From a virus (taxonomy: Duplodnaviria; Caudoviricetes), in the IMG/VR virus record IMGVR_UViG_3300028048_000054: 64,000 bases of DNA. One strand, written 5' to 3'. Position numbers and translations under genes: made by a program. How positions within the stretch are numbered: position 1 is the stretch's first letter; the number at the start of each line of letters is the position of its first letter. Under the pieces are notes generated by a model that saw only the letters and a list, made by a program, of their open reading frames with translations, searched no databases and had not been told where the DNA came from. Of this stretch, positions 33,894 through 42,290 are shown in pieces.

Positions 33894-33922
33894 TTGACAA
33901 AATACACAAAATTTGATATAAT
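33894..33922 (+). promoter_or_regulatory. Sigma70-type promoter heading the radical SAM operon
   Basis: TTGACA (33894-33899), 17 nt, TATAAT (33917-33922), with TG extended -10. Confidence 0.85.
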
Positions 33923-33936
33923 CAATAGGTAGGAAT

Positions 33937-34422
33937 ATGGAAACAACGAAAACGCTCGATGCAATAAATGATTCAAGGCAGACTGAACCTGGTGTTTATG
34001 TTTGGGGTAAATTTACTCCAGATACAGAGGGCACAGGGTTTCAAGATTTACCAGTATTAAGTGCTCCTAAAGCAACAGACACTATGGCGGTTGATAATGG
34101 TGGTGCTACTCTATGCCAATGTGAGTTAAGTACGATTGCTGCATTGAGAACTGGTGATATTGCAACTTCAACGGCTACAAACTTCAATTCATTAAATGGT
34201 GATGTTATGTACTACTTTATTAACTCTGTTGCAGACACGACACAAAATGCGCCTGAAAATGTTACTGCTGGTTGGTTTGTTCAAGTATTCAGAAGTGGAA
34301 ACTATATTATGCAAATTGCTTACCGTGTAGATAATCCATCTAGACAGTACCTTCGTGGGTATAACGGAAGTGTGTGGTCTACTTGGGCGTTCCCATTCGG
34401 TTCTTGGTTCCCAGGTAATTAA
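33937..34422 (+). CDS. Small protein with pyocin-knob-like C-terminal domain
   Basis: NAPENVTAGWFVQVFRSGNYIMQIAY...QYLRGYNGSVWSTW matches the fibre knob pattern. Confidence 0.6.
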   Translation: METTKTLDAINDSRQTEPGVYVWGKFTPDTEGTGFQDLPVLSAPKATDTMAVDNGGATLCQCELSTIAALRTGDIATSTATNFNSLNGDVMYYFINSVADTTQNAPENVTAGWFVQVFRSGNYIMQIAYRVDNPSRQYLRGYNGSVWSTWAFPFGSWFPGN

Positions 34423-35111
34423 TGAGGATTTGTATGAACGAAATTGTTATTGATAAGACAGGACTTGAAGTAGAAAATTTAGATTTAGAAAGTGCTGTAA
34501 AAATTATTTATAAAGTAGATGATAAAGATTTTATGATTAAACATCTTACTGAATTAAATAATTTTGAGTTAAAGAAACAGGAAGAAAAGAATCCAATTGA
34601 AGTACATCTAAATTTTAAATATTTGTCTTTTGATACAAGATTGGAAATTTTAAGATGGGCACTGACAAAAGAAGACTTAATTGATGCTTCACTTGTATTA
34701 AATATTTTTAACTTAATTAAAGGTTACAGCACATTTGATAAGACATTCTTTGATTCAGAAGAAGTAATGTTCAATAAAGCAACAGAGTTTTTAGATTTTA
34801 AGCGCAAATTAGCAACAGAGCGTTCAAAGTTTTTAAGAGAATTGGCTCGTTACTATTTTTCTGCCATTAAGTCTTGTGGAATTGTGGAATATGCCGTAGA
34901 CAACCCACCTTTGATTATACCCTTTGTATATCAAAGAATACTATTAATTTCTGATTTTATTACAATGTCAAATATGCTTTGCGATATTGTTGAAGTTAAT
35001 AATTTGGTAAATGTAGCCAATGCAAGATTTTTTATTGATTCAATGTCTACAAAGAACTCAATAGCAAATATTTTTATTAAAAGTTTAGGAGTACAAGATG
35101 GGCTATCCTAA
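34422..35111 (+). CDS. Hypothetical protein in rSAM operon (possible start 34434)
   Basis: 229 aa, helical, no recognised motif; overlaps both neighbours. Confidence 0.55.
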   Translation: MRICMNEIVIDKTGLEVENLDLESAVKIIYKVDDKDFMIKHLTELNNFELKKQEEKNPIEVHLNFKYLSFDTRLEILRWALTKEDLIDASLVLNIFNLIKGYSTFDKTFFDSEEVMFNKATEFLDFKRKLATERSKFLRELARYYFSAIKSCGIVEYAVDNPPLIIPFVYQRILLISDFITMSNMLCDIVEVNNLVNVANARFFIDSMSTKNSIANIFIKSLGVQDGLS

Positions 35112-39799: not shown

Positions 39800-40711
39800 A
39801 TGAGTAATATGGTTCAATATGGTATTTGGCCAAACTGTTGTAATAACTGTGATTTTTGTTTGCGTATGAATAGAGATTACGAAAACAAGGACAAAATGAT
39901 AGAATTGGTGCGCGGAATCAGAACAAACATAAACTACGTTGATTGGAAAGGTAAGTTTGACGCTGGTATTTCATTATTAGGTGGTGAAATGTATTTTGTT
40001 ACCGATAAAGACATACAAGAAGAAGTAATGCTTCTCATTGATGATATTATTAATAAGATTTTAAAGGTATCACCAAATCCAAAGGTAAAATACTCAACAG
40101 TTACTAATGGGCTGTATGAACCATCATTTTTATATCGTGTTATTGATAAAATTGTAAATGAAGTTGGCATAGACAAAGTTGATGTTAATTTTTCCTATGA
40201 CTTAAAATATAGATTCAAAAATGAAGAAGCCCGTCTCTTATGTCTTGATAATATAAACAAATTTATGAAACGGTATAACTATCACGTAGGAGTACAGATG
40301 ATTTTAACACAGTACGTTATTGATAGTGTTAAAAGTGGTGTGTGGAGTATACAAAAATTTTTAGAAGAAGACATACCTGGTGGAAACTTGTGCTTCTTGT
40401 ACCCACACCCAATTCATACAGGAAAAGTTTTACCAGATTTTCAATTTAAGAGAGATGACTTATTAGATTTTGTAATATACTTACGTGATAATTTTCCTGG
40501 AATATATTTATCATTTGTGGCATCAACACATAACTCTGGTATATTTAAGTATACTGGGTGGCGGGATAAAACCAAAGATATGACACAGGAGCCTATTTTA
40601 TCAGACGGTAAGGAAGAGATAAACCCTGATTGTGGGCACTCAATTTTATATAAATGTTATTCTGATTGTGATGCGTGTTTAGAGTGTGATTTGGAGAACT
40701 TTAGCAAATGA
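39800..40711 (+). CDS. Radical SAM protein 3
   Basis: WPNCCNNCDFC, LLGGEMY, FSYDLKYRF, C-terminal DCGH...CLECD. Confidence 0.9.
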   Translation: MSNMVQYGIWPNCCNNCDFCLRMNRDYENKDKMIELVRGIRTNINYVDWKGKFDAGISLLGGEMYFVTDKDIQEEVMLLIDDIINKILKVSPNPKVKYSTVTNGLYEPSFLYRVIDKIVNEVGIDKVDVNFSYDLKYRFKNEEARLLCLDNINKFMKRYNYHVGVQMILTQYVIDSVKSGVWSIQKFLEEDIPGGNLCFLYPHPIHTGKVLPDFQFKRDDLLDFVIYLRDNFPGIYLSFVASTHNSGIFKYTGWRDKTKDMTQEPILSDGKEEINPDCGHSILYKCYSDCDACLECDLENFSK

Positions 40712-42231
40712 GATATAGTGAAGCCAAGCAAAAAATTCAGCAATGTGTAAATGATAACAAATCCATTGTTGTTATCGGGTATAGTGGATTTGGTAAAACA
40801 GCCCTACTACACGAAGTTGTAGATGGATATACTACTATTTATGGAGTTATGGCTGACCTTCTTACGTCCTATATTGTTGAAGAAAATAAAGATATTATTG
40901 ATGTTCGTGCTAGTGGGAAGAAGTTGATTTTTGCTGTTGACGAAATAACTGAAACTTCTGCTGATAAAGTTGGGTGGTATTATAATATTTTGAAATTAAA
41001 AAAGTCCGCTGAAAAACTTGGAGCAAAGTTTGTGTGTTGTGGTAACAGAGAGTGCAATTTTGTTGATGAAAATTTGTTAAAGTTAGTATTTGATGAAATT
41101 GTATACTTAGACAATACACTTGATGAAGCAAAAATGTATCTTGCTCATAAGTATAATCAGAGTAAAGTAACCTATGTATTAGAGCATAACCCAGATATTC
41201 GAACTCCAAGAGATTTAGAAAAACATATTATCAATCTTACAGAAGAGCATAGACCACGGTTGATGAAGTCATTACAGTTCGAATTATGGCAGGAGTGTAA
41301 CAATAGATGTTCTTTCTGTTATTTAGGTGAAGGGAATAAATGTACTCCAGATGATTTGAAAATTAAAGCATTGGAACGAATTTTATGGACCATAGACGAC
41401 CCATCTGTTTATTTTGAACACGACAACCTGTCTTACATCGGTGGTGAATTTTTTCAAGGTCAATTACGGAATCCAAAAGTTCGTGAACTGTTTATGAAAT
41501 TAATGAATAAGACAGCGGACTTATTACGTGGTGGAATTATAAAATCAACTTGGTTGGCTGCCACATTAATACAAGAGAAACAGGATGACTTGTGGACTAC
41601 CCTAGATATTTTCAAAGATATTAAACCAGAAGGTCTACACGATGGTTTTTGGTTAACTTCTTCTTATGATGTATTTGGGCGATTCCATACACCACAGGCA
41701 GAACAAAATTGGAAAAACAATATGAAAAAGGTACACCAATTATACCCTAATATACGATTTAACATTACAATGATTTTGACAGACAAAATGGTTAATGCGG
41801 TAAATAGTGGTGAGTTAGACCTTAAAAAATTTATGGAAGAATATCATACTTGTTTATTCTTTAAGCAACCATCCCCAGGTTATTATGGTGTCGGACAACG
41901 GGATGGTGTGGCATTGGCTGAAAAAGCACTGCCTGGATTCTTCCCAAAGAGAGAAGCATTTATTGAATTTCTAACTAAAATTCACGAAGAAATACCAGAA
42001 TTATATCCAAAATTATTTAATATAGTGTACCGTGCTGACGAGTTATACAGAAACTTTAATGATGAAAATAGGCAAATGTTATTAGATAAGCGTAATAAAT
42101 ATTCAAAGCAGGAAGTAGAGGGTAAAACGACACTTCCCTGTGGGCACTTGGTAGAGTATGCCGCTTATGCTGATTCAGAAGAGTGTATGATTTGTGACAA
42201 AAAAGCACTTGATGAAATGTTAGGTAGTTGA
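40708..42231 (+). CDS. Fusion: AAA+ ATPase plus radical SAM protein 4
   Basis: Walker A GYSGFGKT, Walker B IFAVDE, TPRDL sensor-2-like; from Met at 41263 LWQECNNRCSFC, YIGGEFF, SSYDVFGRF, PCGH...CMICD. Confidence 0.85.
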   Translation: MRYSEAKQKIQQCVNDNKSIVVIGYSGFGKTALLHEVVDGYTTIYGVMADLLTSYIVEENKDIIDVRASGKKLIFAVDEITETSADKVGWYYNILKLKKSAEKLGAKFVCCGNRECNFVDENLLKLVFDEIVYLDNTLDEAKMYLAHKYNQSKVTYVLEHNPDIRTPRDLEKHIINLTEEHRPRLMKSLQFELWQECNNRCSFCYLGEGNKCTPDDLKIKALERILWTIDDPSVYFEHDNLSYIGGEFFQGQLRNPKVRELFMKLMNKTADLLRGGIIKSTWLAATLIQEKQDDLWTTLDIFKDIKPEGLHDGFWLTSSYDVFGRFHTPQAEQNWKNNMKKVHQLYPNIRFNITMILTDKMVNAVNSGELDLKKFMEEYHTCLFFKQPSPGYYGVGQRDGVALAEKALPGFFPKREAFIEFLTKIHEEIPELYPKLFNIVYRADELYRNFNDENRQMLLDKRNKYSKQEVEGKTTLPCGHLVEYAAYADSEECMICDKKALDEMLGS

Positions 42232-42256
42232 CAATTAAAGTAAATTATGATATAAT
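42228..42256 (+). promoter_or_regulatory. Sigma70-type promoter overlapping the stop codon of the rSAM operon
   Basis: TTGACA (42228-42233), 17 nt, TATAAT (42251-42256), TG extension. Confidence 0.75.
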
Positions 42257-42290
42257 AATACCAGACTGCATAGGTCTGGTATTTTTGTTT
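42257..42290 (+). terminator. Rho-independent terminator closing the rSAM operon
   Basis: AATACCAGAC-TGCATAG-GTCTGGTATT 10-bp stem followed by TTTGTTT. Confidence 0.8.

Follow-up and report, generated by a model that had tools for sequence, protein, structure and literature searches.

What would a bacteriophage do with four neighboring genes for radical S-adenosylmethionine (rSAM) enzymes, placed just downstream of two genes whose products end in an uninterrupted run of serine and cysteine? The question is raised by positions 33894-42290 of a 64-kb stretch of DNA (IMG/VR record IMGVR_UViG_3300028048_000054, hereafter the window), which is a fragment of an uncultured phage with a GC content of about 35% and all its genes on the + strand. 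An earlier reading, based on the letters and the open reading frames (ORFs) of the window (the sequence-only reading), had proposed that the enzymes modify the Ser/Cys tails of two folded proteins rather than a secreted peptide, and the features it listed for this region were all recovered at their coordinates by the ORF list and by motif and signal checks. The proposal passed all the computational tests reported below, and the cassette is probably a phage-borne protein-modification system acting on the tails of these proteins, named T here; the chemistry and a location in the virion are parts of it that we infer.

The two candidate substrates, T1 (35098-35796, 232 aa) and T2 (35798-36493, 231 aa), are paralogs with 48% protein identity and have the architecture described earlier: each would consist of a folded domain of about 200 residues, followed by a pure Ser/Cys tract (22 residues in T1, 35704-35769; 24 residues in T2, 36395-36466) and by the eight-residue hydrophobic end IFIGWWKI (35770-35793 and 36467-36490). 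The AlphaFold2 (AF2) model of T1 contains a moderately confident alpha/beta domain at residues ~8-203 (predicted local distance difference test score, pLDDT, of 74 for the domain model) and a disordered tail. Over 73 nt (35722-35794 and 36419-36491) the two genes do not differ at all, against a nucleotide identity of only 58% in their bodies, which indicates that the two tails have been homogenised.

A search based on T retrieved 17 homologs, down to 26% identity and ~210-260 aa in length, all of which end in a Ser/Cys tract and a hydrophobic end. Among 42 distinct homologous tails from other phages, the tract is always strictly [SC]9-35, with a median of 23 residues and without any Thr, Gly, Ala, Asn or Pro, and the end that follows it conforms to an x-[FY]-I-[AGV]-[YWHF]-x-x-[IL]-type pattern. 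Across the homologs the tracts are encoded with all six Ser and both Cys codons; since all eight codons are used for a tract that stays strictly Ser/Cys, selection acts on it as protein, and a cause at the DNA level, for instance a repeat prone to slippage or an RNA structure, was rejected as the main one. The last five tract residues, beside the hydrophobic end, are almost always Ser; Cys is rare there, and is concentrated where the tract begins and at positions -6 to -8. The number of Cys per tail ranges from 0 to 8, and in a tally of 48 tails three are devoid of it; all loci in which tails were detected include one or more with Cys. A role of T as an iron-sulfur scaffold for the rSAM enzymes was also considered and rejected, since some tails carry 0-1 Cys. 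Tract length is polymorphic in nature, because the near-identical jumbo phages L008 (tail at 6529) and L009 (5820) differ by a single 27-nt, nine-residue unit (C-S8).

The association of these tails with rSAM genes within 10 kb was the test set beforehand, and it held from both sides. Starting from T, the rSAM set lies immediately downstream in five of five distinct loci. Starting from rSAM type C, one of the four types described below, a tailed ORF was found just upstream in all three jumbo-phage contigs (200-285 kb), in part missed by gene callers, and within 10 kb in 27 of 28 IMG/VR loci, the exception having only 631 nt upstream before the contig end. The opposite outcomes that had been foreseen, an rSAM family common without Ser/Cys-tailed neighbors or clustered with QueE/NrdG-type enzymes, were not encountered in the loci examined, and no nucleotide- or cofactor-pathway family recurs among the 34 loci compared.

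Clustering of all ORFs of these 34 loci yielded only three near-universal families, namely rSAM (34/34, 166 proteins), X (33/34) and T (31/34). The usual gene order is X, T, a second T or a tail-less paralog (t), and then the rSAM genes, of which each cassette has four to seven paralogs; each of the types A-D is present in nearly every complete locus. The conserved core consists of X, T and the four rSAM types, and the methylthiotransferase and P-loop domains found in the window are accessories of some lineages. X, a 229-aa helical protein (34422-35111), had been recorded as an unknown; the gene is there, and its recurrence in nearly all loci makes it a core component rather than a mere unknown. 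It stands beside the tailed genes, preceding them in nearly all loci, has no match in Pfam, PHROG or NCBIfam and gives a poor model in the ESM Atlas. X may be a non-catalytic partner, adaptor or chaperone.

The cassette moves as a unit, because it is kept in different surroundings: locus L005 has none of the gene families that flank the cassette in the window, and there it lies beside regulatory and unknown genes; one 170-kb phage (L029, 4124-15600) carries two complete X-T-t-rSAM sets in tandem; and in L039 T is on the opposite strand, with its pairing to the rSAM genes maintained. This persistence bears on another explanation, in which the rSAM quartet acts elsewhere, on phage DNA, tRNA or the nucleotide pool, and T and X are structural neighbors that travel along at the end of a tail-gene block. 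The position in the window would suit it: as proposed earlier, the cassette lies between the tail-fibre genes and the replication module, with large unannotated genes of structural look upstream and with genes for an RNA ligase, a UvsW-type helicase and a DNA methylase directly downstream, together with a helicase loader and a DnaB helicase. In addition, the rSAM block has a perfect sigma-70-type promoter of its own just 5' of it (36707-36735, + strand, TTGACA-17-TATAAT), absent from the sequence-only reading; the fused accessory domain is nearest to the tRNA methylthiotransferase MtaB; and viperin, a nucleotide-modifying rSAM enzyme, is among the tied structural matches discussed below. However, the pairing of T and rSAM genes survives in the three rearranged loci, no nucleotide-metabolism family recurs with the cassette, the methylthiotransferase has lost its RNA-binding TRAM domain and the best sequence relative of the enzymes is a peptide epimerase. 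A substrate of this kind is accordingly held to be very unlikely.

The enzymes themselves are encoded, as claimed, by four genes with five CxxxCxxC domains, the functional motifs starting at residue 16 in the first product, 131 and 377 in the second, 13 in the third and 197 in the fourth. With the methylthiotransferase excluded, the four cassette rSAM domains of the window are paralogs and correspond to four orthologous types across loci. Type A (36861-37811, 316 aa) has GGE and TSxD motifs, a conserved Cys180 and a C-terminal CGH...CxxCD. Type B is the second half (~362-666) of a 666-aa fusion protein (37798-39798) whose first part (~1-360) is the methylthiotransferase; it has no C-terminal Cys motif, and a conserved Cys lies beside TSxD. 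Type C (39800-40711, 303 aa), with invariant C13/C17/C20, C278, H280, C286, C293 and C296, is the most conserved component of the cassette (55-74% identity across loci). Type D, which also ends in CGH...CxxCD, is fused to a P-loop NTPase domain (~1-185) in a 507-aa protein (40708-42231), and it is frequently duplicated in larger phages. In the type D gene of a 212-kb phage an intein interrupts the coding sequence (L010, 10919-12940; 673 aa, weak Intein_splicing match), and a nearby RecA-like gene (20060-20915) carries another one with a LAGLIDADG domain.

The CxxxCxxC motif is invariant in all four types (25-47 sequences each), and the SAM-binding GGE motif (G61, G62, E63) varies little or not at all. 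The C-terminal motif CGH-x5-C-x6-CxxC(D), common to types A, C and D, probably holds an auxiliary cluster. The canonical SPASM Cys pattern (CX9-15GX4C...CX2CX5CX3C...C) is absent from all four types, which have no SPASM match in Pfam; a single, shorter auxiliary site may be present all the same.

The family is rare and was found in a restricted setting. Pfam barely recognises most of the rSAM domains of the window, the type C profile has only 410 representatives among 1.84 billion proteins and the ESM Atlas groups type C with virus-only families. All the loci examined are viral contigs, phage-like contigs of metagenome-assembled genomes (MAGs) or other contigs of uncultured metagenomes. In species genomes, type C occurs only on rumen and gut MAG contigs binned to unrelated taxa, which are probably mis-binned phage contigs; the anaerobic gut and rumen sources fit oxygen-sensitive enzymes. 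No match was obtained among 50,697 deposited phage genomes for the whole region (megablast) or for types C and D (tblastn), and type A has marginal matches only (E of 3e-4 or weaker), to rSAM clusters of the jumbo phages Ralstonia RSF1/RSL2 and FLC4, Burkholderia FLC6 and Sinorhizobium Phosso. The cluster of Ralstonia phage RSF1 (L011, NC_028899 70875-87375) contains four annotated rSAM genes (five CxxxCxxC), two 2-oxoglutarate-Fe(II) oxygenases, a cupin and two dihydrofolate reductase-like genes; it was rejected as an instance of the same system, since no Ser/Cys-tailed ORF is present in that region, and is a different, likewise uncharacterised multi-rSAM module.

Sequence and structure comparisons place the phage enzymes nearest to known peptide-modifying rSAM enzymes. 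A profile built from all four types has as its best solved relative the epimerase YydG/EpeE of Bacillus subtilis (PDB 8ai1, E=7e-10), which aligns at positions 2-177 (~176) and shares CxxxCxxC, GGE and SYD; viperin comes second, at 4e-4, about six orders of magnitude behind. The AF2 model of type C (pLDDT 95.2) has the anaerobic sulfatase-maturing enzyme (anSME) of the anSMEcpe structure as its best fold match (Z 15.0, 262 residues, root-mean-square deviation 3.9), and SkfB, SuiB, viperin (Z 14.0), CteB and ChlB lie within ~1.5 Z of it, so that they count as tied; most of them are peptide maturases. Overall, the type C model matches rSAM structures with Z of 10-15. By these comparisons, the phage family sits among the peptide- and protein-modifying rSAM enzymes with C-terminal auxiliary clusters.

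The YydF/YydG (EpeX/EpeE) system (PDB 8ai1-8ai6) is thus the closest relative by sequence, and the likeness extends to a size of about 300 aa, to the lack of an N-terminal recognition domain and, probably, to a C-terminal auxiliary cluster. YydG acts on the C-alpha-H of a ribosomal peptide, and the resulting C-alpha radical is quenched by a Cys of the enzyme, giving a D-residue, while in sactisynthases the same radical is captured by a Cys of the substrate (PMC5682303). By analogy, both outcomes are conceivable in the phage system. Conversely, YydG is a single enzyme that modifies a small secreted peptide at two hydrophobic positions, and its operon includes a peptidase and an ABC exporter; the phage cassettes have four to seven paralogs, candidate substrates of ~230 aa made of a ~200-aa folded part and a Ser/Cys tail, and no peptidase or exporter among the recurrent neighbors.

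On this basis, a mechanism can be outlined. The four paralogs A-D, each with a predicted SAM-binding [4Fe-4S] site, would act together or in sequence along the tract of T1 and T2, abstracting hydrogen atoms from Ser and Cys. The favored outcome would be iterative C-alpha chemistry as in YydG/EpeE, with L-to-D epimerisation and possibly with thioether links formed from the Cys at the tract start. The product may be an appendage at the C-terminus that resists proteases or is stiffened or cross-linked, and the protein that bears it is probably associated with the tail fibre.

The same tail could be modified on its side chains instead. In this alternative, Ser and Cys would be oxidised to C-alpha-formylglycine, as by anSME, or converted to dehydroalanine by a loss of the beta-OH or beta-SH of the viperin and ribonucleotide reductase type, and the electrophilic tail would cross-link to Cys or Lys of the same or of a neighboring protein. 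The strict purity of the tracts, where Cys is tolerated and Thr, Gly and Ala are not, is what would be expected if Ser and Cys were chemically equivalent substrates. anSME oxidises a Cys or a Ser of a full-size protein, and the top structural rank of anSMEcpe, which accepts both residues, agrees with this view, as do the structural tie and second-best sequence score of viperin; the C-terminal Cys/His motif could be the site of an auxiliary cluster that accepts electrons. However, anSME has a canonical SPASM motif and a second auxiliary cluster that are missing from the phage enzymes, the tails do not contain the sulfatase motif C/S-x-P/A-x-R, YydG outscores viperin in sequence by the margin given above and the positional bias of Cys suggests that the two residues are not simply equivalent. 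Side-chain chemistry is therefore considered unlikely, and C-alpha chemistry remains the preferred reading of the reaction.

The comparison with the structural relatives sets further limits. anSMEcpe (PDB 4k36-4k39), SkfB, SuiB and CteB, the top matches of type C (Z 13.9-15.0, 235-266 residues aligned, 12-15% identity), are anSME/SPASM enzymes or maturases from which the phage family differs by the lack of the seven-Cys SPASM motif, of a sulfatase or its target motif and of a recognition element (RRE) domain for RiPPs (peptides made by the ribosome and modified after translation). The sequence-only reading had cited anSME as an example of a layout with a Cys/Ser-rich C-terminal core; this does not apply, as anSME substrates are not such cores. 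Its comparison with the layout of sactipeptide and ranthipeptide systems was not borne out either, given the tails without Cys, the lack of an N-terminal extension before the cluster motif and matches to PapB and AlbA that are marginal and limited to the N-terminal part.

A closer parallel for the architecture is found in the HXS antiphage system, composed of HxsA with its His-Xaa-Ser repeats, the rSAM enzymes HxsB and HxsC and the small HxsD (PMC13128918). There too, several rSAM enzymes and a small non-catalytic protein mature a folded protein with Ser-containing repeats (PMC13128918). The HXS system differs in being bacterial and defensive, with a periplasmic effector and His-x-Ser repeats, and the phage tails contain no His; no HxsB or HxsC model appears among the NCBIfam matches of the window proteins. 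With no relation to the phage cassette in sequence or setting, HXS is still a precedent for a folded protein being matured by rSAM enzymes.

Proteusin systems, such as that for polytheonamide, also combine a long folded leader with many modifications along one core. The phage proteins resemble them in the long folded "leader" and in the many modifications on one core proposed here; in proteusins the product is a released peptide. No sequence relation to PoyD-type epimerases was detected in Pfam, NCBIfam and PDB searches.

Some lineages carry accessory genes that suggest sulfur chemistry. Residues ~30-371 of the 666-aa fusion protein match the methylthiotransferase models TIGR00089 (2.5e-57) and MtaB (6e-56), the score of 194.6 being below the curated cut-off of 251; UPF0004 of Pfam, the N-terminal domain of this family, is matched as well (5e-5). 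The domain keeps the auxiliary-cluster Cys25/49/80 and the rSAM Cys131/135/138, and among seven cassette homologs C25 and C80 never vary and C49 is missing from one. Compared with the MiaB/MtaB/RimO family, both Cys triads are therefore maintained; the TRAM domain is absent, the match stopping at profile position ~366-391, and the type B rSAM domain is found in its place. RimO shows that members of this family can methylthiolate a protein carbon. In the clade of the window, the MtaB-like domain fused to type B may likewise methylthiolate a carbon in the T tail, in RimO-like fashion. It would be the second protein-directed member of a family otherwise, with the exception of RimO, known for its work on tRNA.

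Methylthiotransferase-like genes occur in 6 of the 34 loci, and the domain is seen again in four other cassette lineages. The fusion to an rSAM domain is found in the window, L003 and L004, with a second case in L033; the particular fusions of the window, type B with methylthiotransferase and type D with P-loop, are limited to its clade. In L003 (11915-13918) the fusion is a single 667-aa ORF, and in the near-identical L002 (11915-13917) it is split into 421 and 249 aa, by either a frameshift or an assembly error. Another family, of ~329 aa (e.g. L008, 9002-9988), occurs in 17 of the 34 cassettes but not in that of the window. Two of 14 members match class-V aminotransferases (1e-5), and T-A-H-A is found where desulfurases have S-x-H-K; by these residues, the family looks like a lysine-less NifS-like protein. 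Together, these accessories point to sulfur chemistry in some lineages. In L005, the most distant cassette, a 111-aa gene resembling AdoMet decarboxylase (pyruvoyl) lies between types B and C (13342-13677; Pfam E=7e-6).

PQQ (pyrroloquinoline quinone) and mycofactocin clusters carry a helper protein together with rSAM enzymes. The combination of X with several rSAM paralogs could be viewed in this way, with the tail as a disposable scaffold from which a small molecule or cofactor is built and then released, as for PQQ, mycofactocin and pearlin-type products, T and X being carrier and chaperone. Many like residues in a row would then provide many copies of one product, and the methylthiotransferases and NifS-like proteins of other lineages would supply sulfur handling. 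Such a role is most unlikely: no peptidase or releasing enzyme is found among the recurrent families, a domain of ~200 residues, at times fused to large adhesin-like domains, suits a structural product better, and the conserved hydrophobic end would have no function.

A structural product is hinted at by the genes in which T is found and by their neighbors. In two phages the T domain and tail form the C-terminus of larger proteins, one of 640 aa with CYSxMF-type repeats (L037, 6442-8364) and one of 518 aa (P0287) with a large N-terminal extension; the former has no Pfam family, and no family was recognised for the extension of the latter. In 12 loci the gene 5' of X belongs to one family, a member of which carries a lower-baseplate (BppL_N) motif. 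The fusions and this neighbor are hints that T is a part of the virion surface.

Several points weigh against modification of the T tails, or against a particular form of it. The support is genomic or by homology throughout. The likeness to known rSAM enzymes is distant (12-16% identity, template modelling (TM) score ~0.5), so that an epimerase, a dehydrogenase, a cross-linker and a dehydratase are not discriminated. The C-terminal halves of the phage enzymes and of YydG do not align, and no equivalent of Cys223, the H-atom donor that YydG has next to its C-terminal [4Fe-4S] cluster, is assigned, the candidates being C180 in A, C129 of the domain in B and C286 in C. Because some tails have no Cys, a Cys-dependent cross-linking or thioether formation is not the universal reaction. 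Comparison of the T domain model with PDB, BFVD and the ESM Atlas gave no fold match that convinces (E>0.01 with Foldseek; a best Z of 4.6 with VIA; TM<0.3 in the Atlas), and the promoter at 36707 means that the rSAM block could be transcribed apart from the T genes. Finally, the window and the recurrent neighbors of the 34 loci yielded no RRE, peptidase or exporter. As regards the latter two, the sequence-only reading had already recognised none; leader removal by a host protease may occur.

A bolder version of tail modification can be put forward tentatively, as a possibility that we regard with some doubt. The enzymes A-D would run a series of reactions new to protein chemistry, turning a poly-Ser/Cys tail of ~20 residues into a backbone or side-chain polymer, e.g. 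an alternating D/L or sulfur-bridged rod, methylthiolated in the clade of the window, which would provide a virion adhesin of anaerobic gut phages with an appendage that is chemically hardened and proof against proteases. If this were true, it would be the first enzymatically hypermodified structural protein of a phage.

No publication was found on a phage rSAM system with Ser/Cys tails, in agreement with the earlier statement that no characterised phage system was known to have this architecture. To our knowledge, the established targets of rSAM maturation are small secreted peptides and a few cellular proteins, phage proteins not among them, and we know of no system that joins four to seven dedicated rSAM paralogs with a pure Ser/Cys tract. 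Should the tails be modified, three things would be new: an rSAM subfamily whose chemistry on the most common hydroxyl amino acid is itself new, a substrate class, i.e. a folded protein with a "core" and a C-terminal follower, and a means by which phages in anaerobic habitats make or shield parts of the virion. Since the cassette is compact (~8 kb) and several natural variants exist, direct testing by heterologous expression is feasible.

The remaining features of the region concern its borders and its less conserved genes. The cassette genes mostly abut or overlap, as the tight packing described earlier implies. They are preceded by a TG-extended sigma-70-type promoter with a 12/12 match to TTGACA-17-TATAAT (33894-33922, + strand) and closed by an intrinsic-terminator-like hairpin with an 11-bp stem and a T run (42257-42283, + strand), both of which had been predicted. 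Four perfect 12/12 promoters (TTGACA-17/18-TATAAT) occur within 10 kb, at 33894, 36707, 42228 and 42325, three of them TG-extended. This set points to a host with a sigma-70/sigma-A consensus, not of the Bacteroidota type, and to a heavy use of the host RNA polymerase.

The first gene after the promoter encodes a 161-aa "knob"-like tail-fibre or receptor-binding protein (33937-34422), with weak matches to PHROG tail-fibre families (E=1e-4). Its homologs are the C-terminal end of a 695-aa protein (L004) and a 112-aa protein (L002), and it is a neighbor of the cassette, outside its conserved core. Between T2 and the rSAM block lies a fast-evolving gene for an unknown protein; it had been described as 115 aa long, while the longest ORF (36478-36837) gives 119 aa. 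In many other loci this position is held by the tail-less T paralog, and no homolog of the 119-aa ORF was detected among the genes at the equivalent position. Just 5' of the cassette, two adjacent genes (31579-32628 and 32625-33890) encode Gly-rich paralogs with GGGGGF motifs and 30-40% identity in blocks; they have no family match and are probably fibre or baseplate parts. At the other end, where the window has the terminator and the RNA ligase, L002 and L003 carry an IS605 OrfB/TnpB (Cas12f-like) gene directly 3' of the last rSAM gene (16432-17631).

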